Shown piece by piece: positions 4,196 through 57,218 of a DNA stretch of 64,000 nucleotides; the stretch's first letter is position 1, and each line of letters starts with the position of its first letter. The notes beneath the pieces were generated by a model. It was not told the origin of the DNA. It worked only from the letters and a program-made list of their open reading frames with translations, and searched no databases. The position numbers and the translations under genes were made by a program. Origin of the DNA: Escherichia coli 042 (GTDB lineage Bacteria; Pseudomonadota; Gammaproteobacteria; Enterobacterales; Enterobacteriaceae); NCBI RefSeq assembly GCF_000027125.1, contig NC_017626.1. One strand, written 5' to 3'.

Positions 4196-5092
<897 letters not shown>

Positions 5093-5110
5093 TTAAGCGC
5101 GCGCTTCAAC

Positions 5111-5920
5111 TCACCTCTGCAATATTTTGTCCATCACGCGCCCCGGCAGCAGGCGCTTGAGCACCATTACTGCCCAGGTCACCAGCGTTACCGGATAGCG
5201 CATCTTCGGCTTCTCGCTAATAAAAGCATGGCGCACTTTGTCGACCACCGCTTCCGGCCCCAACGTAAAGCGGGCGGCGATGCCGGGATTTTCGACAGGT
5301 TTATCACTTTGTGTCTGGTTGACGTTGTCGGTAAAACGAGTACGAATAGGACCGGGTTCAATCAGGCTGACTTTAATTCCGCTGTGGCGCAGCTCCATGC
5401 GCAGCGCGTCTGACCACGCCTCCAGCGCATATTTACTGGCTGCGTAAGCTCCTCGACCCGGCGTGGAGATTAATCCCATCACCGATGAGGTCATCACAAT
5501 ACGCCCTTCACCGTGCGGTAACATCGCGGGTAACAGGCGCATGGTGAGCTGGTGCGCGCCGAAAAAGTTGGCAGAAAACTGCTGTTCCATCTGCGCACGG
5601 CTGATGGTGGAAAGGGGGCCATACATGCCGAATCCGGCATTGTTAAAGATCCCATACAGACAATTATCGGTCAGGGCGATCACTTCGTCGGCTGCGCGAT
5701 CAACACTTTCTGGCGAATCCAGATCGATCAACACGCCGGTAAATCCCATGCTGTTCATGCGCTCAACATCATCCGCTTTCCGGCAACCTGCCAGCACATG
5801 AAAACCCTGGCGTTTTAATTCGAGCGCACTTTCCAGGCCAATTCCACTGGAACATCCGGTAATTAAGACCGATTTTTGCATAACTTTACCTGTCAGGATC
5901 TCCGTTGCTTTATGAGTCAT
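5111..5920 (-). CDS. ybbO: short-chain dehydrogenase/reductase YbbO
   Basis: 269 aa with SDR motifs (TGCSSGIG cofactor site, YAASK active site). Confidence 0.9.
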   Translation of the reverse strand: MTHKATEILTGKVMQKSVLITGCSSGIGLESALELKRQGFHVLAGCRKADDVERMNSMGFTGVLIDLDSPESVDRAADEVIALTDNCLYGIFNNAGFGMYGPLSTISRAQMEQQFSANFFGAHQLTMRLLPAMLPHGEGRIVMTSSVMGLISTPGRGAYAASKYALEAWSDALRMELRHSGIKVSLIEPGPIRTRFTDNVNQTQSDKPVENPGIAARFTLGPEAVVDKVRHAFISEKPKMRYPVTLVTWAVMVLKRLLPGRVMDKILQR

Positions 5921-11476: not shown

Positions 11477-12403
11477 TTAACTGCGTGGGGTGCCGAAAAT
11501 TTCTAAAAATCCGCTGATTTCCGGCCTGCGCTGGGTAAACAAGGTCACAATATCTTCTACCGCTTTGCCGCTGCCAAATTTGCGCCATGCCAGACTCAAT
11601 GGCGAAGGAGGGCGCATCGTTGGGATTACCCGGCTGACCAGTTGTTGATTATCGATCATTGACTGGCAAAGTGATTTTGGCAAAAAACCAATGCCAACGC
11701 CCGCCAGATGGGCGGCGATTTTCGTTTCCATATCAGGAACAATAATCTCTTTTTGCCCTGGCAATCGCCAGGCGACGCGTTTGGTTAAGGTGCGGGCGCT
11801 GTCTTCAATATTGACCGCCGGAAAGCGACGCAACTGCGCTTCTGTTAGCGGCTCTTCAACGTTCGCCAGCGGATGATCCGCCGCCATGACAAAGCGCCAT
11901 TGCACCGATCCTAAGGGATCAAGACTAAAGGTATTTGCCAGCGCCTCGGTTCCCGTGACGCCGATAGCCAGTGAAAAACCTTCGTACAATAGCGAGTCCC
12001 AGACGCCCATATAGATTTGCCGGGAGATGTGGAACTGGGTAAAGGGGTAACGTTCATTCAGCCACGCCAGCAGCTGGGCGACGGCCTGGGGATTGTAGAG
12101 CAGGTTGTTGATGACAATATTCACCTGGCGTTCCACGCCATCATTCACCTGTTGCAGCTCGCTGGGCATACTTTCCAGCCAGCTCAGCCAGTCTCTGGCC
12201 TGAGAAAGTAGATGCTCGCCAGCCGCTGTCAACGTCACGCTGCGAGTCGTGCGGAAAAACAGCGCCACTCCGGTATTCTCTTCCAGAAGTTTAATGCGAT
12301 AACTGATCGTCGCCGTGGTTTTACATAATCGTTCTGCCGCTTTTGAAAAACTTCCTGTTTCAGCAACCGCAATGAAAGTCCGCAAGGTTTCTGGATCGAA
12401 CAT
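11477..12403 (-). CDS. allS: LysR-family activator of allD, AllS
   Basis: 308 aa; LysR HTH at the N-terminus; divergent from allA. Confidence 0.9.
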
Positions 12404-46703: not shown

Positions 46704-49676
46704 TTACCAGTGCACTCCAATGGTGAGAAACGCGTTGTTGCGCTCTCCGTTACGTTGATTAATTGCCTTAAAGGTATGTTGATACTCGACGCCGAGACTG
46801 ACTTTGTGCGGCCAGGCGTCGTAGTGCGTCTCGCCGGTCCAGATATTCCAGCGGACCCCGACACCGCCAAGCTGCGCGCCCTGAGTGCCTTTATCACGAT
46901 AACCGTTGTCCTGAACGTGAGCGTAAGGCTCAATAGTCTGTCCGTTCGCCACCTTCTGATGCCAGCTGACGCGATAATCTGCCGTCCACGCCTGAATATC
47001 CTGGCGGACATATTGCGCCGCATCGAGGTACAGGTTTTGGGCAAACCAGCCTGAACCGTTCGGGTGCCATTCATCGCTGTATTTGCCGCCATTAAAGAAT
47101 GAGGCGCTGGCGCGCAGCATGGTATCGGATGCGCCATTTTGCCCGTTCAGCGGCAACTGCTGTTCGACGGCGAGGAAAAAGATCTGATCGCGCAGCGGCT
47201 TCCAGCGCAGACCGGTGCCGGACATCGGATTTTTCACCGGCATCATCACCCCGTTTTCTCCGGTATCGGCAAATACACGGCTGTAAACCGAGAGCAGGTC
47301 GCCTTCCAGCAGCATATTGCGTCCGATGCGGTACTCGGCTTCCAGTTGCCCGTAGCTACGATAGCTTTTCCCTGGCGCTGCGCCGCCGACATTATTGTTA
47401 GCGGTACTCATCGCGCCGGAACGCAAGCCGATGGAAGAATCGAAACTGAACGTCCAGCGGCGACCGACCTCCTCATGCAGACGGCGGAAATTGAAGCGTT
47501 GCTGATTTTGCTCTGGGGTCAGTGGGGTTATCAGCGCCTGATTATCAATGTCATCAATCACCAGCCGGGCGTAGTGCTGCGTCGCAGGCATGTCATCCAG
47601 ACGCTGGTTCACGTAGGCCAGTTGTCGGATAAGTGCCGGATCGTCCGGTAGCCCTTTATGCGCCTGTTCGAGCATTTCCCGCGACTGTGCGATATCACCG
47701 CTATCCCACAAGGCGTAACCGAGCGCTGCCTGGGTGTTGCTATTATTCGGCTCCAGTTCCAGCGCGGCGCGCAAATCACTCACTGCCGCTGGGACATTAT
47801 GACGTTGGCGATAAATTGTCGCCCGCGCAACGTAAGCGTTGGCAGAAGGCGCAATATTGATTGAGCGCGTGAGATCGTTCAGTGCGAGTTCCGGCTGACC
47901 AGGAATGTAACGTTGCGCATGCAGCCACCAGTAGAGGGCATTGTTTCCCAGCCCACGTTGTTCTGCCTGCTGAAGCCAGCGATCGCGAGCCGCACCATTT
48001 CCTGCCGCCTGGGCGGTATTGGCAGCAGCAAGCAGATCCTCATTGCTCATGTCGTGAAGACTGATTTTCTGCCAGGCCGCCAGTGCGGTGGCGTAGTCCT
48101 CAACCTGATACGCTTGATAGGCTACCGCACGATGTTGCCAGGCGTTCGGTTGTCGTTGTTCGGCCTGAAGCCATGCATACAACGCCACACCGGGTAGCGT
48201 GTCCCGATAACACTTTGCCAGACGGTTCCAGGCGGCGGCATCGTAGGAAGGCGACATATCGCCCAGCAAGCGAACTATTGCCGGGCAATTATCTGCAATA
48301 CCCGGCAACTGACTTTGCCACTGACGTTGCTCCGCCAGCGGTAAGGGTTTCGATAAAATCGCCACCTTCGCCGGCGTTGCCAGGTAAGGATGACTTTCCA
48401 GCAGAGACGCCAGTCGCGCCATTAAAGTCTGGCTGACACGCGCATCGCCCTGGAAAGGATAGCGTTGCAGCAATAAATCGGCAGCTTCGCGTGACTGCTC
48501 GTTCTGCATCAGTTGCCAGGTCAGTTGATCCAGGCGGGTAAGATTTGCCGGTTCTTGCTGATACAGCAATCGTGCCAGACGCAGAGCTTCAGCCTTGTTA
48601 TGGGTCGCTACGCTAACGGTATAACGCTCCTCAAGCATTTCATTGGCGGGGAGGGTGGCGAGCAGTTTTTGCGCTGCGTCGTACTGACCTTCTTTTAACA
48701 GCACCGGTAGCGTCGCGCCAACAACATACTGGCGGTTGTCGGCAAACTGTACCGTATAATTCGCCAACGCCTGAACGGGGTTGCCGCTGTATTTAGATAA
48801 CAGATAGAGCCAACTTTTCTCTTGTGCGTCCGTGGTAAATAGCGGAGTATTTTCAATGAGATAACGCTGGAGGCGTGCTTTTTCGTCACGATAAGCCAGC
48901 GCGGTCGCGTAAGTAATATATGACTGCGGATCGGTGAAGATCCCCTGTGATTGCAGCGCCAGGATCCGATCGTCCAGCTGCCCGGCAAGAAGCACATCAA
49001 ACCACTGGCGGCGTTCTGCCGCGCTTAATGTGTTCTGCTGGCGTGCTTCATTGTATAGCGTATCTGCCTGGGACCATTGCTTCAGGTAGATTGCCCGTTG
49101 CAGCAGATCGGTTCGCAGCGTTTTTCCTTCCGGCGATGCAGCAAACGTCGCATCGTTCAGTTGCGCTCTGGCGACAGGTAATTGTGCCAGCCGCAGGGCA
49201 TTCTGCCCAACTTCACTGCGACAACGCAGGGTCGGCGCAGCATCGCACGCTTTTTGCTGGGCAAGCAGTTCTTCAACTGTCGTAACGCTTTTCACTTCAA
49301 CTGGAATAGCCGCCAGACTGCGCTCAAGTCGGGCATCTCCTGGGTGACGTTTCAGTTGATCCTCAAGCAACAGCCGCGCCCGGTCATCATGACCAAAATA
49401 GCGATAGGCTTCCGCAAGGTATAAAGCCAGCGGAATATTATCCGGCACCTGCTGGTGTATATATTCAAATTCGCGGATGGCGGTTGCTTCGTCGTTATTT
49501 TTCTGTGCCTTCAGCGCCTTATCGAGACGGGGATAAATAACAAAATGGCGATAATCGCTCAGCCCCAGCTCTTCTGCGCTGGTGCCGATATTGTCTGCGA
49601 GTGCGCTGGTACTCAATAAAGACGTCAGCAGTAAACCAGACCATCCGATGACGCGATTAAGGTTATTCTCCTTCAT
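46704..49676 (-). CDS. nfrA: outer membrane protein NfrA (TPR-rich periplasmic part plus C-terminal beta-barrel-like region)
   Basis: Start at MKENNLNRVIGWSGLLL gives 990 aa with signal peptide; the start overlaps the end of nfrB. Confidence 0.9.
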   Translation of the reverse strand: MKENNLNRVIGWSGLLLTSLLSTSALADNIGTSAEELGLSDYRHFVIYPRLDKALKAQKNNDEATAIREFEYIHQQVPDNIPLALYLAEAYRYFGHDDRARLLLEDQLKRHPGDARLERSLAAIPVEVKSVTTVEELLAQQKACDAAPTLRCRSEVGQNALRLAQLPVARAQLNDATFAASPEGKTLRTDLLQRAIYLKQWSQADTLYNEARQQNTLSAAERRQWFDVLLAGQLDDRILALQSQGIFTDPQSYITYATALAYRDEKARLQRYLIENTPLFTTDAQEKSWLYLLSKYSGNPVQALANYTVQFADNRQYVVGATLPVLLKEGQYDAAQKLLATLPANEMLEERYTVSVATHNKAEALRLARLLYQQEPANLTRLDQLTWQLMQNEQSREAADLLLQRYPFQGDARVSQTLMARLASLLESHPYLATPAKVAILSKPLPLAEQRQWQSQLPGIADNCPAIVRLLGDMSPSYDAAAWNRLAKCYRDTLPGVALYAWLQAEQRQPNAWQHRAVAYQAYQVEDYATALAAWQKISLHDMSNEDLLAAANTAQAAGNGAARDRWLQQAEQRGLGNNALYWWLHAQRYIPGQPELALNDLTRSINIAPSANAYVARATIYRQRHNVPAAVSDLRAALELEPNNSNTQAALGYALWDSGDIAQSREMLEQAHKGLPDDPALIRQLAYVNQRLDDMPATQHYARLVIDDIDNQALITPLTPEQNQQRFNFRRLHEEVGRRWTFSFDSSIGLRSGAMSTANNNVGGAAPGKSYRSYGQLEAEYRIGRNMLLEGDLLSVYSRVFADTGENGVMMPVKNPMSGTGLRWKPLRDQIFFLAVEQQLPLNGQNGASDTMLRASASFFNGGKYSDEWHPNGSGWFAQNLYLDAAQYVRQDIQAWTADYRVSWHQKVANGQTIEPYAHVQDNGYRDKGTQGAQLGGVGVRWNIWTGETHYDAWPHKVSLGVEYQHTFKAINQRNGERNNAFLTIGVHW

Positions 49677-51900
49677 TTTCGGACTCCAGTTGCGCAACCT
49701 GTTCTGTGTTTAAACCTGCTTTGAGTAATAGTGATTGCATCGAAACTTGTAATTCGCGTTGAATTGTCAGGACGCGATCCAACGTTTCCTGGCTGATAAC
49801 GCCTTCGGTGACCAAAAACTTGCCGAGCGGCAGAGAACTGCGTTCATGGCGCAATAACAACACGTTAATTGCTGAACGATTAATATGACCGAGCGTGGTC
49901 AGTATTTCGGCGAACAGGAACTGATGCGGCACATATTGCCGCCAGATTTCACCGGCCTGCTGTTCCGTGAGCCACTGATGCTGAACCGCATTGTACAACA
50001 TTGCCCGCGGATCGTGACCGCGTCGGCGCGCATACCAGTGGCGTAACCCCGTGACAATTTGTCCCCGCAGAACAATGACGTAACGCACTTTGCGTCCGAC
50101 TTTACGCGTCAGGGCCGCCAGCGAAACCGGGTCAATACCATCTTCACTGCCGACAATTAACTCATCATTTTCCAGACGCAGCGGCAGCACTGCATAATGC
50201 AGCGCCACGGAGGCCGGCATTTCGGCAATCAGTGATGAAGGGATCTGCCAGGCGTCGATCGACTCCCACGCCACGCCGTTTTGCTCTGCCAGCGCCTGTG
50301 CCAGCTGTTCGGCGCTAATCAGCCCCTGCATCAGCATTGAACCGCCCAGGCGTAGACCTTCGACGCGATTACGCAGTGCTGTATCGAGTTGTTCTTCAGT
50401 GATGACCTGATTTTCCAGCAGGATTTGACCTAACGGACGCAACGAGCGGGTATCGCCAGTCACGCTGGGGAAGTCATGCGTTGTTTTATCCCACGCGACA
50501 CGACGTGGATCGCCGTGTTGAAGTACCTGTTTTAACGCGCGCCAGTTGGCCATGAAGTTAATCAGGTTGCCCCAGAAAAGACGCAGGACAGATAGCAGCC
50601 CCTGCGTCAGGCCGTAGTAGCCAGTAACGAAAATCACCCGCTGCACGATGCGGTTAATCATCAAGCCAAAGTTTAGCCACAGCAGAGTCATTAACCATGC
50701 GCTGCCGCTGAAAATAGAAAGGAAATGCCAGGCATCGGGCCACAAACTTTCATACGCCAGCAACAGCAAAAGCTGGATCATCACCAGCATCGCGAGGAAG
50801 CTGACAAAGTTACTGATTGCCCCTTTGCGGTCGCGCCAGAGAAAGTAGTTCAGCGTCAGACTGGAGGTCCATTTGTGGGTTTTAAAGCCCTGGAAAACAA
50901 TGCCGATGATCCAGCGAGATTTTTGTCGAACCGCAGTCGAAAAGGTATCGGGGAAATATTCGCGCACGCAGATCATGTTTGACGTCCGCGCGTGCTGTAA
51001 AAATTTACGCTGCTCGCGTTCTTTGGCTTCGTCCACCACCGGAAAACGGACAAAAATTTCCGTCATACCTTTTTCTTTCAGGCGGAAACCAATGTCGTAA
51101 TCTTCAGTAAGACTCTGCACGTCGAAAGCAATACCATCACCGTCAGCTAACAGTGCGGTCACGGCGCGGCGGCTGAAACAAGTACCGACGCCTGCGCTGG
51201 GCACCTGTCCGGCGAGGGCTTCACGCACCGGAACATCTTTGCCATGCAGTTCTGAAAACTCATCAATGTAAGTCATGCTGGTGAAGTGCGTCCATTCGCG
51301 TTCGAATGGGTATACCGGGATCTGAATCAGATCTTTACGCTCGACCAGATAGTTGAACAGACGCAATTCCATCGGTGAAATTACGTCTTCGGCGTCATGC
51401 AGAATAAAACCAGCAAAAGCGAAATTGGCGCTACGCTCAAACTGGGTGATGGCGTCCAGCACGTTGTTCAGGCAGTCGGCTTTGCTGGTGGGGCCAGGAC
51501 GCGCGCAGACTACCTTATGCACGTTTGGGAAGCGAGCGCACACTTCGTCAACATCACGCTGAGTATCGGGGTCGTTGGGGTAGGTGCCAACAAAGATATG
51601 ATAGTTTTCATAGTCGAGCGTGGTCGCCGCCAGCTCGGCCATATTGCCGATGACGCCCGTTTCATTCCACGCCGGAACCATAATCGCTAACGGTTTTTCA
51701 TCTGGTTTATACAGTTCGCGGTAACTCATTCGCGGGTAGCGGCGATAAACACTCAACTTGCGTTTAATGCGGCGTACCCAGTAGACGACATCAATAAAAA
51801 AATCGTCCAGCCCGCTGATGAACATGATGACCGCTAACGTTATCGCGATTACTTTTAAGCCGTAGAGCCAGGTAGCAAAAACATCAAGAAGCCAGTCCAC
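49663..51900 (-). CDS. nfrB: inner membrane family-2 glycosyltransferase NfrB with C-terminal cyclic-di-GMP-binding region
   Basis: 745 aa; N-terminal TM, GT-2 catalytic region, additional TMs and a cytoplasmic C-terminal domain. Confidence 0.9.
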   Translation of the reverse strand: MDWLLDVFATWLYGLKVIAITLAVIMFISGLDDFFIDVVYWVRRIKRKLSVYRRYPRMSYRELYKPDEKPLAIMVPAWNETGVIGNMAELAATTLDYENYHIFVGTYPNDPDTQRDVDEVCARFPNVHKVVCARPGPTSKADCLNNVLDAITQFERSANFAFAGFILHDAEDVISPMELRLFNYLVERKDLIQIPVYPFEREWTHFTSMTYIDEFSELHGKDVPVREALAGQVPSAGVGTCFSRRAVTALLADGDGIAFDVQSLTEDYDIGFRLKEKGMTEIFVRFPVVDEAKEREQRKFLQHARTSNMICVREYFPDTFSTAVRQKSRWIIGIVFQGFKTHKWTSSLTLNYFLWRDRKGAISNFVSFLAMLVMIQLLLLLAYESLWPDAWHFLSIFSGSAWLMTLLWLNFGLMINRIVQRVIFVTGYYGLTQGLLSVLRLFWGNLINFMANWRALKQVLQHGDPRRVAWDKTTHDFPSVTGDTRSLRPLGQILLENQVITEEQLDTALRNRVEGLRLGGSMLMQGLISAEQLAQALAEQNGVAWESIDAWQIPSSLIAEMPASVALHYAVLPLRLENDELIVGSEDGIDPVSLAALTRKVGRKVRYVIVLRGQIVTGLRHWYARRRGHDPRAMLYNAVQHQWLTEQQAGEIWRQYVPHQFLFAEILTTLGHINRSAINVLLLRHERSSLPLGKFLVTEGVISQETLDRVLTIQRELQVSMQSLLLKAGLNTEQVAQLESENEGE

Positions 51901-52236
51901 ACAAAAACCTTACATTAACGCTGGTTATGTTTAGGGTGGCGTATATTAAGGTTTTTTATGAATTGTGACAGCTTTTTACCATTAATAGGTATGACTATTG
52001 CGGCACGTTATTTTTACACTGGTTATAAAAGTTGCCGTTTGCGTAGAATGTAGACAAAAGCGTGGTGTCAAGGAGGGGCGGTAAACGTCATAGTGAAGAG
52101 GAGTGGTGGCACCGATCAGGTCATCATGTAGTGTAAGCGTCTGGAGGAGGTGAGCAGGGGAGATCATTTTCCCCGTGCTGAACAAAAAGACGGCGTTGCT
52201 GTGGGTACAGGAAGGCTAACTTCATTTCTCTTTAGA

Positions 52237-52773
52237 TTATTTAAGTTTAATATTCAACCAGGAAATAAAGAACGTTAAAATAACAAAGGAAAAAACAATC
52301 AAAGAGACATTCCTGAAAAATACGTGCTCATAAAAAAGATAAAAAACGTACAAAATTGGGCACGCAACTTTCAGGACGTTTATATGTTTAGAATTCTCTT
52401 TATCTTTAAAGTTAAAATTACATAAAAATATAAAGAAATATGAAAGCATGGCTGAAAACATCATTGATAAGGCGCGATATGGCAGTCCTGAATTAAAGGT
52501 TTCGACTCCTAATAATATTGTCGATAGCGTTGCAATTATAATTGCCACTTTTTTACTAGAGGTGAAAGTAACGACAAAAAATATCAATGATATAAATAAG
52601 AAAGAAAAAAATATGTAAATATTTGTTGATATATGTACTTTATGAGGAACTGTAAAATAGGTATAACTGATTGTAATTATGATGGTAATTATTCTGTATA
52701 GCATGCATGCTAACAGGCCAATCAGTAGTTTGTTCGCAAATTTATAAGGGGATTCGCTATTGGTTGATTGCAT
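52237..52773 (-). CDS. hypothetical polytopic membrane protein (178 aa), AT-rich, island gene
   Basis: Four to six hydrophobic segments; Ile/Phe/Lys-rich composition typical of horizontally acquired genes. Confidence 0.5.
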   Translation of the reverse strand: MQSTNSESPYKFANKLLIGLLACMLYRIITIIITISYTYFTVPHKVHISTNIYIFFSFLFISLIFFVVTFTSSKKVAIIIATLSTILLGVETFNSGLPYRALSMMFSAMLSYFFIFLCNFNFKDKENSKHINVLKVACPILYVFYLFYEHVFFRNVSLIVFSFVILTFFISWLNIKLK

Positions 52774-52837
52774 GGTTATTATGCTCTTGAATTGTGTATT
52801 TTATTGGAATGTTTCTTGGTTAACTAAAACAATGCAT

Positions 52838-53266
52838 TTAATAGGTGGTGGTGTAAATATCAATGTCATACTCATTATCACAGACTACTATTACTCTACG
52901 AGTTATGTCAAAAAATAACGTTAAATCATAGGTTCCCTGTTCTCTGAAAATACTCTGCGCAAATGACGTGAAATTATTCCCATTTATAACTATTTTTACT
53001 TTACCTTCATAGATAAGCCAGCAACGAAAACATTCAGCTGTACCAGATAATGTCACTATCTGACTGATTAGAAGATTTATATTTACCGGATGAGGTAAAA
53101 AAAGTCTGTCGTTGAGGCAATCAATATTATGTGTTTGATGAAACTCTTTTCTCATTAATGAAGAGTTATCATATAGCAGGGTTATACTAAACGAGTCAAT
53201 TCCGTCAAGCTTTTGCATAAATTTGTTTGCTTTATAAATAAGCAACTTTGCTTGTGTTTTTGTCAT
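52838..53266 (-). CDS. hypothetical protein (142 aa), island gene
   Basis: ORF-track ORF, AT-rich, same orientation and tight spacing with neighbours. Confidence 0.45.
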   Translation of the reverse strand: MTKTQAKLLIYKANKFMQKLDGIDSFSITLLYDNSSLMRKEFHQTHNIDCLNDRLFLPHPVNINLLISQIVTLSGTAECFRCWLIYEGKVKIVINGNNFTSFAQSIFREQGTYDLTLFFDITRRVIVVCDNEYDIDIYTTTY

Positions 53267-53293
53267 GATGGTGATCTTTTATGCAAGGGGGAA

Positions 53294-53740
53294 TTATTGG
53301 AATTCAAATGTTTTATATTCCTCTGTAATCATCTTTAAACTTAACATAGCCATGTCTCGGGTATCTTCATCATCAGATTGTAGAGAAATATTTAATCCTT
53401 TAATTAAGGTGTTATCGGGAAAAGCCATTGCCAATAATGTATACCAACATCGGACACTTTTTATTGTCAGAGGATTTTCCAGTATGTTGGCGATATTTGA
53501 AGCTATAATGTTTTTATCACACTTGTACAAAAAATCTTCGACCAACTGATATACACCGAAGCCATCACCTTCCCCAAACGATTGTAAAAATAACGGTATG
53601 GCTTCTTCAGCAGGATTTGCAGAAAAATAAAGCCTTACATTGTTATATTTATTGATAAGTTCCTGAGTGATGTCATAATCATTTGGCATAGGTTGGTTTA
53701 GAGCAAGGAATGCTAATGCTTCTTTTTTAGTCATATTCAT
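53294..53740 (-). CDS. hypothetical protein (148 aa); possible orphan immunity protein
   Basis: ORF-track ORF, acidic and largely helical by eye; AT-rich and next to IS/Rhs remnants. Confidence 0.4.
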   Translation of the reverse strand: MNMTKKEALAFLALNQPMPNDYDITQELINKYNNVRLYFSANPAEEAIPLFLQSFGEGDGFGVYQLVEDFLYKCDKNIIASNIANILENPLTIKSVRCWYTLLAMAFPDNTLIKGLNISLQSDDEDTRDMAMLSLKMITEEYKTFEFQ

Positions 53741-53760
53741 AATGGTTAATATTGCTTGCT

Positions 53761-54313
53761 GGAAGAATTAAGGTAAAAATGGTTCATAGACAGAATTAAA
53801 TAGGAAGTCTTGTTTCCAGATAACTTTATCATGAAAAAGAGATTTGGCTTGATGCGTATAAAGATTATGAGGATAAATAGTTTCTCCACCATAAATGATG
53901 TTCTTTCCCGTTACACCGGAGAATTCATTGGCTATAATCTGTCGTTTAAGCCAGTGAATGACTTTACATAAGCATATTAATTTATCCTTAGAATCAGTTG
54001 TGTTAATTTCAGTAAGTTGTAAAATCTTTTCCCCATTATACTCAACTAAATGCCCCGGCTTTATTTCAATTCAACCACAATAACGATCAATGCTACTAAA
54101 CTTTATTCTTCTATTGTTAGGTTTAATGCTGGGCATAAGATAAATTCGATGTGCTACGGCAGGGATCTTTTCTGTTAAGACATTTAATTGCTTAGAGTAT
54201 TCATCTTGTAGTGTAAACCAAATTGAATGTAATTTGTATTTTGAGGCTACAATCGCGAGCCAATTAGACAGTTCCTCGTTCGTGCAAAAAACATTTATCC
54301 TGGCAGTTGCCAT
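53761..54313 (-). pseudogene. frameshifted hypothetical gene (~180 codons in two frames)
   Basis: The 80-aa ORF 54071-54313 stops at 54071, but an open frame continues in another frame to ~53761 (IEIKPGHLVEYNGEKILQLTEINTTDSKDKLICLCK...). Confidence 0.4.
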
Positions 54314-54346
54314 TCGTAATCCTTTTTATATAAGATTGTGTGAATG

Positions 54347-54549
54347 TCACCGAAACAACTTGATATGAATAAAATAGCTAAAGCGAAATGGATGACGTGT
54401 TACTAAAAAACCATTCTGAAAAGGAAGCCTGAATAAACGCGATGACGAAACTTCCACTCTCCATGTTTCATCAGAAAAATAACTAAATTCGATGTGGTTT
54501 TCATATAATCTCATTTCACGTAAGGTTCCGCTACCATAAGGGACCGCAA
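54347..54549 (-). pseudogene. orphan 3' gene fragment abutting the H-repeat end
   Basis: The track ORF 54347-54583 starts inside the element's terminal repeat; only the part outside the element can be native. Confidence 0.3.
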
Positions 54550-54550
54550 T

Positions 54551-55841
54551 CAGGGAAAGATTACGAAAGCCCGCTCCCAGCAAGGACTGACGCCAGATAG
54601 TTTCTGTCCATGGCTGCTTTTCGCATCTTACGTCTTAACCCTGCCTTGAATACCTTATCATTCGTCAAAATATTAATAGCGATGTGCCGTATCCCTGAAA
54701 ATAATTCTGCGGCGTTTCCTCTTCTTATTTTGCAGTCGTCTTCATTCATTACCACGTCCAGACGCCAGTGCAGCTTATTCTCCACGTGCCAGCGGTTTCG
54801 GATTGCTGTGGCGAACTTCTCTGCGGTTAAATCAGCACAACTGATATAATATCTGACCGTCATTTCTGGCTCTTTCTTTTGTTCTGCTATTATTGACCGA
54901 AAGGAGACTGCCACGCATAATTTCTTCAGACCTTTCCATTCAAACGTGAAATCAATAAGTTCATCAGGGACATCGCAAACAATGTGAAGACGGATTTCTT
55001 CTCTGCCGTGACTCTTTTCACTAATTGCGTAACTGTCATGCTCTGGATTATTTAATTCTTTCAGTGGGAATTTTTCCTCAAAGGCTTTATTAAGCCGCCC
55101 CTGATTTCCTTTTACAGCGAATAAATAATCACCGCCCTGTTTTTGTATCTTCTCTGCAATATCTTTCTGGCAACCCATCGCATCAGTTGTGATGATTTTT
55201 CCTTTAATATCCAGCATGTTAAGAAGTTCAGGGATAGCTGTAATCTCATTTGATTTCTCATCCGTCCTGATCTGTCCGATGACCAGACTGTGCATTGTTG
55301 AGAACGCACTAATGACATGAATCGCTCCCTTGCGGCGACTCTTGTCATAAGAATGCCGGAGTGTTTTTCCATCAATTGCGATGACGTCTTTATCATCTGA
55401 AGAATGGCAGTCACGCATCCAGTTAATAAAGCACTCGTGAAATTTTGCAGGACTGATACAGGATACAACTCTGGCAATAGTATCGTGAACAGGAATACCA
55501 TTATCAAAATCACCATATTGCTTCAAAAAATCGAGATGTGTTTCCCCAAAATCCTCTATATCTTCCCAGCCTTCTGCACCCGAAATAACGGCACAAATAG
55601 TCAACAGTAGAATATCCGATAATTTATGTTCCACTTTCCAGGCTTGTCTGTAATCGGGGATAATAGAAATATGTTCCATCAATTTTTTAAGTTCCATTTT
55701 GTTCTCCTTAATTATGTAAGGAGTATTTGATCATGTATAAGCAATAAAAAACAGCTTTAGGTAATGAGGAATATCTCAATTTGTAAACATAAAATGCGAA
55801 TTATTTAGTACAAAAAGTGTACTTCTGATGATCTTTCCCTG
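54551..55841 (-). mobile_element. H-repeat / ISAs1-family insertion sequence, copy 1 (apparently intact)
   Basis: ~1.29 kb bounded by inverted repeats cagggaaagat (54551-54561) and atctttccctg (55831-55841); contains one long transposase ORF. Confidence 0.8.
54561..55697 (-). CDS. H-repeat-associated (ISAs1-family) transposase, 378 aa
   Basis: 378-aa ORF of the size and character of E. coli Rhs-associated H-repeat proteins; a second disrupted copy lies at 56.7-58.6 kb. Confidence 0.8.
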
Positions 55842-56045
55842 GGAGGTGATACTGACCGTCTGCCCGAATTCGTCATAGAGGAAAAACGTCGCGCCGCCCT
55901 CCGGGTCAATTTCACACACCGGAAGCCGGTCTTCACTGAAGCGGATAATGGTGGTATGCCCCAGCGAATCAGTCATCTCCAGCTCATGGCAGAAATCATT
56001 CCATACAAAGTGGTAGTCGTAGTACCCGCCGTCGCCCAACAGCAA
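55842..56045 (-). pseudogene. YD-repeat (Rhs-like) gene fragment truncated by the H-repeat
   Basis: YD-type repeat signature (...CEIDPEGGATFFLYDEFGQTVSITSQ) runs into the element end; no upstream Rhs core. Confidence 0.45.
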
Positions 56046-56062
56046 TCAATCATCGAATCAAA

Positions 56063-56524
56063 TTAACTTGACAAGGTTTTTATTTTTTCGTGTTCGAAAA
56101 ATAAATGTAGCATAGCGTCATTAATATTACCGCCTATAATACAAAAATAGTTATCAAAACCACCATAAAGAGCACCATCATCTGAAATAAAATATGTCAT
56201 ATGCTCAGAAAAACCAACACCAACAGGACATAAACGCTTATTGACCAATGGTTCATAGACTTCAGTTATCCATTTAGAGTCTATCCAACCAGCAGCTTTT
56301 ATTGGATCAAAATCGGATTTATCATACTCATTAGGATCTGAATAAGATTCATGCCGTACTATCAACCCTCCAAACTCTGATAAAAAATCACAAATAATTT
56401 CATTAACAAAATATTTCTTAATGGATAAACACTTTATATATTTATCTATGTTTTCTTTTCTGCCATAGTGCCATCCATTTTGCAACAGGACACTCATCAC
56501 TTGTTTATTCGTTATATGATTCAT
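56063..56524 (-). CDS. candidate immunity protein for the upstream deaminase-like toxin tip (153 aa)
   Basis: Starts 2 nt after the toxin-fragment stop (TAATTATG), the usual toxin-immunity coupling; family not assigned from sequence alone. Confidence 0.45.
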   Translation of the reverse strand: MNHITNKQVMSVLLQNGWHYGRKENIDKYIKCLSIKKYFVNEIICDFLSEFGGLIVRHESYSDPNEYDKSDFDPIKAAGWIDSKWITEVYEPLVNKRLCPVGVGFSEHMTYFISDDGALYGGFDNYFCIIGGNINDAMLHLFFEHEKIKTLSS

Positions 56525-56526
56525 AA

Positions 56527-56704
56527 TTACCCCGTTAATACATCAATTCCTAAATATTTGAAAATTTCCTGACAGTTTCTACAGTTCGGAAAAGCACTTC
56601 CATCACCAGTATGAACTGTAGCCATTTCCAAATCATGCAACGATGAATTATCTTTGAGAGCTTTATTCACCGCATCTATTTCAGCACAATTATTAACAGC
56701 CCAA
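56527..56704 (-). pseudogene. truncated C-terminal toxin domain with nucleotide deaminase-like motifs
   Basis: Native ~59 codons after the IS boundary: ...NNCAEIDAVNKAL...(33 aa)...AFPNCRNCQEIF..., i.e. a [C/H]AE helix plus CxxC pair with deaminase-fold spacing; the 5' part is replaced by the H-repeat. Confidence 0.5.
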
Positions 56705-57218
56705 GGCAAGATTACGAAAGCCCGCACCCCGCAAGGACTGCCGCCAGGTAGTTTCTGTCCATGGCTGCTTTTCGCATCTTACGTCTTAACCCTGCCTTGA
56801 ATACCTTATCATTCGTTAAAATATTAATAGCGATGTGCCGTATCCCTGAAAATAATTCTGCGGCGTTTCCTCTTCTTATTTTGCAGTCGTCTTCATTCAT
56901 TACCACGTCCAGACGCCAGTGCAGCTTATTCTCCACGTGCCAGTGGTTTCGGATTGCTGTGGCGAACTTCTCTGCGGTTAAATCAGCAGAACTGATATAA
57001 TATCTGACCGTCATTTCTGGCTCTTTCTTTTGTTCTGCTATTATTGACCGAAAGGAGACTGCCACGCATAATTTCTTCAGACCTTTCCATTCAAACGTGA
57101 AATCAATAAGTTCATCAGGGACATCGCAAACAATGTGAAGACGGATTTCTTCTCTGCCGTGACTCTTTTCACTCATTGCGTAACTGTTATGCTCTGGATT
57201 ATTGGTAATGACTCCAAC

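Follow-up and report, generated by a model that had tools for sequence, protein, structure and literature searches.

Genes and features at the nfrB-side end of the island

The window examined here, a 64,000-nucleotide stretch of DNA from Escherichia coli 042 (NCBI RefSeq assembly GCF_000027125.1, contig NC_017626.1), includes an island with Rhs fragments, and the nfrB-side end of this island is occupied by a string of four small ORFs (Table 1). ORF coordinates and GC content bear out their initial description as tightly spaced, AT-rich genes on the same strand. The intergenic gaps are 64, 27 and 27 nt, the GC content of the individual genes lies within the 29–34% range, and that of the entire segment from 52159 to 54560 is 32.9%, compared with 52% in nfrB and 49% across the window. 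At 30% GC, the probability that a 178-codon open frame arises by chance is estimated at about 4e-7 for one frame. All four genes are read in the direction of nfrB, so the 178-aa membrane protein is encoded at the promoter-distal end of the string and not, as had been surmised from the letters alone, in a promoter-proximal position.

Table 1. Features of the gene string and its immediate surroundings (positions are those of the window).
Feature	Coordinates	Strand	Basis
nfrB-side island junction	52159-52236		flank comparison across E. coli genomes
178-aa membrane protein gene	52237-52773	minus	ORF list; last in the string before the nfrB promoter region
142-aa gene, putative orphan immunity gene	52838-53266	minus	ORF; context of a paralog
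148-aa gene, probable orphan Rhs immunity gene (rhsI-type)	53294-53740	minus	ORF; synteny of homologues
181-codon gene, pseudogene here, putative immunity gene	53768-54313	minus	one reading frame broken by a TGA
TGA nonsense codon (Trp81 to stop) in the 181-codon gene	54071-54073	minus	comparison with intact alleles
remnant of a 151-aa gene, last 67 codons and stop	54347-54550	minus	DNA alignment with orthologues
ISEc1 transposase gene (ISAs1-family, 'H-repeat')	54561-55697	minus	ORF; RefSeq annotation of the identical region of strain 118UI

The 181-codon gene, which had been thought to be split by a frameshift, is a single frame broken by one in-frame TGA. This codon is TGG (Trp81) in the intact 181-aa alleles from E. 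albertii (L004), Escherichia sp. (L007 and L009), L002 and P0001, and the tryptophan is at least 90% conserved across the wider 181-aa family; the lesion is a TGG-to-TGA nonsense codon, W81*. A sequencing error at about position 54070 was considered and is rejected because the TGA is common to 151 assemblies: the 820-bp stretch with this codon occurs in 151 complete E. coli genomes at an identity of 99% or more.

The module extends beyond the four genes first noted, to a fifth member located upstream. This is the remnant of a 151-aa gene, intact orthologues of which immediately precede the 181-aa gene in E. albertii (L004, 9451–9906) and in Escherichia sp. (L007, 9512–9967; also L009). In the DNA alignment, homology to the 151-aa gene begins at about 54550. 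The gene is the first of the conserved string, and its 5' side was lost to the insertion of ISEc1, which lies between the module and the remainder of the Rhs island.

No domain had been recognized by eye in the genes of the module, and searches of Pfam, NCBIfam, PHROGs and PADLOC gave the same outcome. In particular, none of the five proteins matches a curated immunity family (SUKH, CdiI_N, Imm57 and others) in Pfam or NCBIfam at E ≤ 1, the models of defence and toxin–antitoxin systems yield nothing meaningful (best E of 0.36 in PADLOC and 0.19 in PHROGs), and no enzymatic or toxin-like domain is detected by Pfam or NCBIfam in any of the genes. The products of the 148-aa, 142-aa and 181-codon genes have no match among PDB sequences. 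No RNA families were found in the module with Rfam, a repeat scan gave merely short chance repeats, and a literature search yielded no mention of the RefSeq protein accessions of the module.

The module lies at Rhs position 4

The interval between nfrB and cusS is known as Rhs position 4, a site of clade IV rhs genes with displaced tips downstream (Jackson et al. 2009, PMC2935791, Table 3). In E. coli SE11, the genes of this interval, from cusS toward nfrB, are vgrG, a DcrB-type chaperone gene, a gene for a 1619-aa Rhs protein that ends in an AHH tip, an immunity gene, an Rhs fragment bearing a zincin-like tip and, finally, ISEc1; the genes of the SE11 locus are on the same strand as the module. 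Only fragments of the Rhs locus are kept in the window: the main rhs and vgrG are missing, and the island consists of Rhs, PAAR, HNH-toxin and deaminase fragments together with SUKH-3 and WD40-like genes. The published site, the SE11 gene set and the island fragments all place the module within an Rhs and type VI secretion locus. Other Escherichia have this string as well, with genes of the CdiI_N, Imm57 and SMI1/KNR4 immunity families interspersed among its members. Neither an integrase nor a recombinase was detected in the island, ISEc1 being the only adjacent element.

Relatives of three module families in the immunity slot of rhs genes

The rhsI slot, i.e. the position that overlaps the stop of an rhs gene or follows it by a few nucleotides, is occupied by relatives of three of the module families but not by the window copies themselves. 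In the case of the 148-aa gene, the homologue from Cronobacter dublinensis (L014, 5765–6202) overlaps the 3' end of an Rhs C-terminal gene (4503–5786), and the homologue from E. coli CREC-544 (L023, 11980–12414) overlaps a second such gene (11618–11983). The two homologues are 59–65% identical to the 148-aa protein, and the toxin tips encoded next to them are homologous to each other, with the shared motifs GEDLYVGTYG, HTPHHAIQ and ITINLRKDLH. In a blastn search, with a sensitivity of about 65–70% identity, DNA of the HTPHHAIQ tip was detected in 22 of the 5426 E. coli genomes, and the paralogous immunity allele (at least 99% identity) is likewise present in 22; in the other E. coli genomes, including 158 that carry the window-type 148-aa gene, the tip has no match. 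The immunity family thus co-varies with a single tip family in both Cronobacter and E. coli. The HTPHHAIQ tip has no match in Pfam and nothing significant among PDB sequences, and none of the 13 members of the 148-aa family gave a relevant match to a curated immunity profile.

The family of the 181-codon gene is much broader, with 104 representative clusters, defined at 50% identity, recovered by an exhaustive profile search at E ≤ 1e-3, mostly of 175–190 aa. Its members were found 9 nt after the gene for a 1856-aa Rhs protein (L024), 5 nt after an Rhs C-terminal fragment (L031) and as the second gene after a 3466-aa Rhs, behind CdiI_5 (L030); of five contexts examined, those in L026/L027 and L028 lack an adjacent Rhs gene. 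The Rhs tips in L024 and L031 are clearly homologous (PHN..HTHGG..EEV..RRPD..YRENVGK), which extends the co-variation of immunity and tip families to the 181-aa family. Co-occurrence of homologues with particular toxin C-termini, a possibility raised by the sequence-only reading, is therefore found for two families, the 148-aa one (HTPHHAIQ) and the 181-aa one (PHN/HTHGG/RRPD/ENVGK).

The 181-codon gene belongs to a widespread, unannotated family encoded directly downstream of Rhs toxins and, judging by this gene context, specifies a putative immunity protein. The RRPD-type tip has no Pfam match, searches of PDB sequences with the tips and the family profiles gave nothing significant, and the curated immunity profiles have no relevant match among 65 members of the 181-aa family. 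The AlphaFold2 model of the 181-aa protein (pLDDT of 93) has no relative in the PDB. The case is evenly poised for the 181-aa family being an undescribed immunity family and the partner of an equally undescribed Rhs C-terminal toxin domain (PHN, HTHGG, RRPD, ENVGK), with an alpha/beta fold that is confidently predicted for the immunity protein and lacks a convincing solved counterpart; the toxin domain may be a PD-(D/E)xK-like nuclease.

Close relatives of the 142-aa gene are confined to E. coli and E. fergusonii. Those that were checked adjoin cusS, lying between cusS and nfrB in E. coli and after cusS in the rearranged locus of E. fergusonii. A distant paralog from E. coli 64A:C (L033, 8986–9420; 33% identity, BLASTP E-value of 9e-22) overlaps by 11 nt the stop of a gene for a 1298-aa Rhs protein, which is preceded by vgrG, a DcrB/Eag-type chaperone gene and a prePAAR gene, and the tip of which matches PF15657 (Tox-HNH-EHHH) with an E-value of 1.4e-9; this is the single tip pairing found for the family. 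A homologue in Gilliamella sits in an array with two SUKH proteins. Through this one paralog and this one array context, the 142-aa gene can be considered a putative orphan immunity gene.

When the three toxin tips are compared with the window using tblastn, nothing better than an E-value of 0.36 is obtained. No rhs tip precedes any of the window genes, which makes the window copies orphans. Overall, the module is probably a set of orphan Rhs immunity genes, partly decaying. The original suggestion of orphan immunity or accessory genes from a toxin island is supported for three of the four genes, given their Rhs-adjacent relatives and the published Rhs site; the membrane protein lacks a tie to a toxin.

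The membrane protein gene

The 178-aa product contains about five or six hydrophobic segments of transmembrane length, in agreement with its initial description as a polytopic membrane protein. The gene is carried by about 152 of the 5426 E. coli genomes and by E. albertii-like contigs, and was found nowhere else: genome contigs and plasmids contain no relative of the protein beyond Escherichia, and a metagenome scan returned solely close relatives of the Escherichia type. No toxin-adjacent relative was found in genome contigs, plasmids, metagenomes or variant contigs. Polytopic immunity proteins are the usual counterparts of membrane-acting toxins and, by this analogy, the 178-aa protein may confer immunity to such a toxin.

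A competing reading, which falls somewhat short of an even chance, places this ORF outside the immunity string, as either a separate small membrane protein of the nfrB side or a functionless, decaying ORF. It would account for the position of the gene, which is next to nfrB, regardless of the upstream genes, in all contigs that extend that far, as well as for the absence of toxin-linked relatives. It also fits the constraint on the gene, which is the weakest in the string (dN/dS is 0.39 over the full length, for the intact allele in L043, 81% identical to that of the window, and 0.57–0.71 in the N-terminal part), the frameshifts in L004, L020, L045 and L046, four of six variant contigs that were compared, and the lack of a RefSeq annotation. 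However, the gene is located inside the island, shares its strand, spacing and low GC content (29%) with the other genes of the string, and exists as two intact 178-codon alleles at 81% identity; the usual pairing of polytopic immunity proteins with membrane-acting toxins also speaks for its inclusion. The possibility that the gene is part of the conserved flank of nfrB was considered separately and is rejected: most E. coli match the region upstream of nfrB only to position 52158, where the conserved flank ends, and K-12-like genomes only to 52042.

Decay and purifying selection

Decay of the string is evident from the loss of part of the 151-aa gene to ISEc1 and from the W81* nonsense codon in the 181-codon gene. 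Further frameshifts are present in L003 and P0004. Together with the four contigs in which the membrane protein gene is broken, this repeated inactivation suggests that selection on the string is weak or episodic. The scan for promoters and terminators remained below the level of shuffled sequences, with 5 promoter signals against the 12.8 expected; with no enrichment of promoters, and with ISEc1 lying between the string and any upstream rhs promoter, expression of these genes can only be presumed.

The dN/dS ratio is 0.08–0.24 for the 148-aa gene, 0.14–0.21 for the 181-codon gene, 0.15–0.40 for the 151-aa gene and 0.29–0.45 for the 142-aa gene. The overall 0.08–0.24 range of the 148-aa and 181-codon genes, which spans E. 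coli, E. albertii and a cryptic Escherichia lineage, points to long-term purifying selection on intact copies. In the strain analyzed here, the 148-aa and 142-aa genes are intact, and they are essentially invariant across 151 genomes.

These observations bear on the less likely proposition that the genes owe their immunity character to descent alone and now represent inert relics, i.e. silenced, promoterless, AT-rich DNA that drifts to loss and affords no protection. The truncation by ISEc1, the occurrence of W81* throughout the 151 genomes of this type, the independent frameshifts in other lineages and the lack of promoter-like enrichment are what such relics would be expected to display, and so are the rarity of the cognate toxin in E. 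coli and the presence of the module in just about 3% of the complete E. coli genomes; but long-term purifying selection on intact copies, and two genes that remain whole and nearly unchanged in 151 genomes, are at odds with simple drift. It is highly improbable that the module is some other accessory system, such as a toxin–antitoxin pair or an anti-phage cassette, that merely ended up beside the Rhs island: such a system would fit the small size, high AT content and horizontal acquisition of the genes and their proximity to insertion sequences, the phage N4 adsorption genes nfrA and nfrB adjoin them, and one relative of the 181-aa protein is encoded within a region rich in PhdYeFM/PIN toxin–antitoxin genes, but the defence models and domain searches cited above are negative, three of the families have relatives in the Rhs immunity slot, and immunity genes of the CdiI_N, Imm57 and SUKH families adjoin the string in other Escherichia.

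Probable orphan Rhs immunity genes and their implications

If the genes are indeed orphan Rhs immunity genes, the module would be the downstream, promoter-distal tail of Rhs position 4, read from the cusS side toward nfrB. Some strains hold a complete type VI secretion cargo set at this locus, with rhs and an immunity gene in addition to vgrG and a chaperone gene; in the present strain, the delivery genes are gone, which would leave a stand-alone string of immunity genes, namely the 151-aa (truncated), 181-codon, 148-aa, 142-aa and 178-aa genes. Each immunity protein is predicted to bind and block one particular Rhs C-terminal toxin domain. Because the matching tips are absent from the window and, in the case of the 148-aa gene, were not found in the other E. 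coli genomes with this allele either, any benefit would consist in protection from the toxins of other strains rather than in self-protection.

Orphan toxin/immunity arrays of Rhs loci arise by displacement of C-terminal tips (PMC2935791; Poole et al. 2011, PMC3150448; Koskiniemi et al. 2014, PMC3967940). The module resembles these arrays in its site (position 4, nfrB–cusS), its orientation, the interspersed IS/H-repeat elements, the small AT-rich genes downstream of rhs material, and the relatives in the rhsI slot. It differs in that the toxin tips are gone, whereas the classical modules keep an rhs C-terminal fragment for each immunity gene, as in the Cronobacter locus, and in that this strain has lost the main rhs and vgrG of the locus.

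The presence of immunity genes without cognate toxins, at a hotspot the content of which varies by strain, is also reminiscent of poly-immunity clusters and of acquired interbacterial defence. Islands of the latter kind were reportedly described in Bacteroidales by Ross et al. in 2019. A poly-immunity cluster is presented for Stenotrophomonas in a recent preprint (bioRxiv 10.64898/2026.07.13.738213). By analogy with such clusters, the module could protect its carriers from attack by other strains. Unlike those clusters, it is associated only with ISEc1, not with a dedicated recombinase or integrative element, and the array is partly pseudogenised. In size range and neighbourhoods, the module families are similar to SUKH/SMI1-KNR4, CdiI_N and Imm57 (the classification of Zhang et al. 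2012 as implemented in Pfam), and genes of these three families lie beside module-family genes in E. albertii, Escherichia sp., E. fergusonii and Gilliamella.

Both this kind of element and the locus have already been described, so what is gained is annotation and detail rather than a new concept. A likely role is assigned to three families of 'hypothetical proteins' that lie outside the curated libraries, and the associated families of toxin tips are named. On the reading given even odds above, the 181-aa protein with the RRPD-type tip and the 148-aa protein with the HTPHHAIQ tip would be two new toxin–immunity pairs, toxin-less copies of which would have been kept under purifying selection in Escherichia since before the split of E. 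coli and E. albertii, so that a chromosomal hotspot would hold a standing 'immunity bank' for defence. The module would be a clear case, in a well-studied species, of immunity genes outlasting their toxins at a known Rhs hotspot, and bears on the part that orphan immunity may play in the resistance of gut strains to type VI secretion attack by one another.

Gene content of the nfrB–cusS island

The island that separates nfrB from cusS in this E. coli genome spans ~11 kb, and its nfrB-side 2.1 kb comprises a string of four tightly spaced AT-rich ORFs on one strand, as the sequence-only reading had described. The intergenic gaps are 64, 27 and 27 nt long, and the GC content of the four ORFs is 29–34%, below the 52% of nfrB and the 49% of the whole window. 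A fifth gene, encoding a 151-aa protein, is reduced to a remnant in the window and is intact in E. albertii and in a cryptic Escherichia lineage. All four genes are transcribed toward nfrB, so that the membrane gene, previously suggested to be promoter-proximal, is the last of the string; ISEc1 sits between the string and the genes upstream, and no signal stands out in a promoter scan. Searches with all five module proteins give no match among the Pfam, NCBIfam, PHROGs and PADLOC profiles, in agreement with the earlier failure to recognize any domain. In the RefSeq annotation of the identical region of E. coli 118UI, a plus-strand 56-aa ORF (52448–52618) is called in place of the membrane ORF, and neither the 181-codon pseudogene nor the 151-aa remnant is annotated.

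Features of the nfrB–cusS region (window coordinates)
Feature	Position	Strand	dN/dS	Remarks
nfrA		minus		with nfrB
nfrB	49663–51900	minus	0.02–0.03
178-aa membrane protein ORF	52237–52773	minus	0.39 full length; 0.57–0.71 N-terminal part
142-aa ORF	52838–53266	minus	0.29–0.45
148-aa ORF	53294–53740	minus	0.08–0.24
181-codon ORF	53768–54313	minus	0.14–0.21	TGA at 54073–54071
151-aa gene remnant	54347–54550		0.15–0.40	last 67 codons; cut by ISEc1
ISEc1 transposase gene	54561–55697			debris (first ISEc1 copy)
Rhs YD-repeat fragment	55776–56045			debris
SUKH-3 immunity gene	56063–56524			debris; E 4.9e-12
YwqJ-like deaminase tip remnant	56527–56727			debris; Pfam E 3.5e-4, below cutoff
Second ISEc1 copy	56712–58625			debris; interrupted by IS1
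InsA/InsB-like ORFs	57219–57916			within second ISEc1 copy
346-aa paralogs (tandem)	60679–61719; 61831–62871			debris; WD40/YVTN/BNR-like (RefSeq)
HNH/EndoVII toxin-2 fragment	62897–63196			debris; upstream of both 346-aa paralogs
PAAR-like fragment				debris
cusS	start near 63565

The lesion in the 181-codon gene, originally taken for a frameshift at ~54070, is a single in-frame TGA at a codon that is TGG (Trp81) in intact alleles, with Trp81 at least 90% conserved across the wider 181-aa family. The surrounding 820-bp stretch is shared, at 99% identity or more, by 151 complete E. coli genomes; the TGA (W81*) is thus a fixed nonsense mutation and not a sequencing error.

The nfrB–cusS site is the Rhs ‘position 4’ of E. 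coli (Jackson et al. 2009, PMC2935791, Table 3), the sole clade IV rhs site, with displaced C-terminal tips located downstream of the main gene (PMC2935791). In E. coli SE11, this gap is occupied, throughout on the strand of the module, by vgrG, the gene for a DcrB-type chaperone, an Rhs of 1619 aa that ends in an AHH tip (C-terminal toxin domain), an immunity gene, another Rhs fragment and ISEc1. The island in the window retains only debris of such a locus; the Rhs locus has thus decayed, and the module is its distal tail.

Within the island, a deaminase tip, a SUKH-3 gene and an Rhs fragment form an orphan module just upstream of the string (55776–56727). The ISEc1 copy that is interrupted here is unbroken in 118UI, where the island is otherwise identical. 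The tandem 346-aa paralogs are almost identical over their C-terminal ~165 aa and diverged in their N-terminal halves, which looks like a recent partial gene conversion or duplication.

Relatives of the module genes and associated toxin tips

Homologues of the 148-aa protein (45–91% identity) are found in E. fergusonii, E. albertii, Citrobacter, Cronobacter and Hafnia. The Cronobacter dublinensis homologue is part of a classical Rhs-tip/immunity array, in which it overlaps an Rhs C-terminal gene at the latter's 3' end. E. coli CREC-544 has a paralog with 65% identity that likewise overlaps an Rhs C-terminal gene at its end, here a pseudogene. The tips at these two loci are homologous, with the motifs GEDLYVGTYG...HTPHHAIQ...ITINLRKDLH, and no Pfam family matches them. 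The tip DNA is present in 22 E. coli genomes, the paralogous immunity allele (at least 99% identity) likewise in 22, and no match to the tip is found in any other E. coli genome; these others include all 158 carriers of the window-type 148-aa allele. The C. dublinensis contig (8.6 kb) holds a textbook displaced-tip array, useful as a source of cognate pairs: five Rhs C-terminal fragments lie in succession, no two with the same tip, and most are directly followed by a small candidate immunity gene. In Hafnia alvei (loci L011/L012, 7400–10432), six small unannotated genes lie in a row on one strand, the 148-aa homologue being the last, and the 20-kb stretch examined contains no called Rhs gene; this run has the look of a further immunity-only array, here outside the genus of the window.

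A word-indexed search with the 181-codon product retrieves Escherichia sequences only; an exhaustive profile search with the 181-aa family yields 104 representative clusters, mostly full-length, at 24–35% identity. One member of this family is located 9 nt downstream of a 1856-aa Rhs (locus L024), another 5 nt downstream of a C-terminal Rhs fragment (L031), and a third (L030) comes after an Rhs of 3466 aa and a CdiI_5 gene; no Rhs is present in two further contexts. The tips of L024 and L031 show clear homology (PHN..HTHGG..EEV..RRPD..YRENVGK) and have no match in Pfam or PDB; judging by its motifs, this tip may be a PD-(D/E)xK-like nuclease.

Close relatives of the 142-aa gene are limited to E. 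coli and E. fergusonii, and all those checked adjoin cusS (in E. coli, between cusS and nfrB). In E. coli 64A:C, a complete 1298-aa Rhs with a Tox-HNH-EHHH tip (E 1.4e-9) comes after vgrG, the gene for a DcrB/Eag-type chaperone and a prePAAR gene, and its stop is overlapped by a paralog of the 142-aa gene (33% identity, E 9e-22). A Gilliamella homologue belongs to an array with two SUKH proteins. The 178-aa product, with about five or six TM-length segments, has relatives in Escherichia only. Its gene adjoins nfrB in every contig that reaches nfrB, the other alleles include one intact (81% identity) and four frameshifted, and it may not be a functional part of the string.

Distribution and variant strings

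A near-identical module is present in ~151 of the 5426 complete E. coli genomes. Most of the other genomes match the upstream flank of nfrB only to position 52158, and the K-12-like ones to 52042, which puts the edge of the island a short way downstream of the membrane gene. Elsewhere in Escherichia, the cusS–nfrB gap holds different strings (proteins denoted by length in aa): SMI1/KNR4, 181, 143 and ISAs1 in E. coli R32_14_1F; 143, 110, 142 and the membrane gene in another E. coli lineage; 151, 181, 141, CdiI_N and the membrane gene in E. albertii; and 162, 151, 181 or 151, 181, Imm57 in Escherichia sp. In E. fergusonii, a rearranged region downstream of cusS carries ISAs1, SMI1/KNR4, 96 and 142, followed by htpG rather than nfrB. 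Judging from these variants, the module genes behave like interchangeable cassettes among recognized polymorphic-toxin immunity genes.

A gut-metagenome variant of the module (L038) has a group II intron reverse-transcriptase-like ORF (691–1941) upstream of the 148-aa gene, and in an E. albertii-like variant (L045), the conserved membrane gene comes just after a small membrane ORF of another kind (127 aa, 1270–1653).

Function and selection

The string is most likely an array of orphan Rhs immunity genes, in line with the earlier suggestion of orphan immunity or accessory genes; relatives of three of the families occupy the Rhs immunity slot, directly after an rhs gene. The dN/dS values show that the soluble module genes have been maintained as coding sequences across Escherichia, and the repeated, independent inactivations (W81* in the window, a frameshift in strain N96, and the variants P0004 and P0005) argue for relaxed or episodic selection on the module. 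The main rival explanation is that the immunity genes are now inert relics. A role as a defence or toxin–antitoxin system has no support.

The synonymous divergence of the module (52240–54313) is out of step with that of nfrB (49666–51900), as compared in L002, L004 (E. albertii) and L020: within E. coli, the module is the more divergent (0.16–0.36 versus 0.07–0.11), whereas against E. albertii it is the less divergent (0.25–0.48 versus 0.67). This mismatch hints that Escherichia lineages have exchanged the island, or that composition affects dS.

Under the orphan immunity interpretation, each immunity protein would bind and neutralize one toxin tip. No cognate tips are found in the window, so that the benefit, if any, would be protection against T6SS-delivered Rhs toxins of other strains. 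Elements of this kind, and the locus itself, were known before; what is new is the placement of three unannotated families in the immunity slot, along with two unclassified toxin tips next to them.
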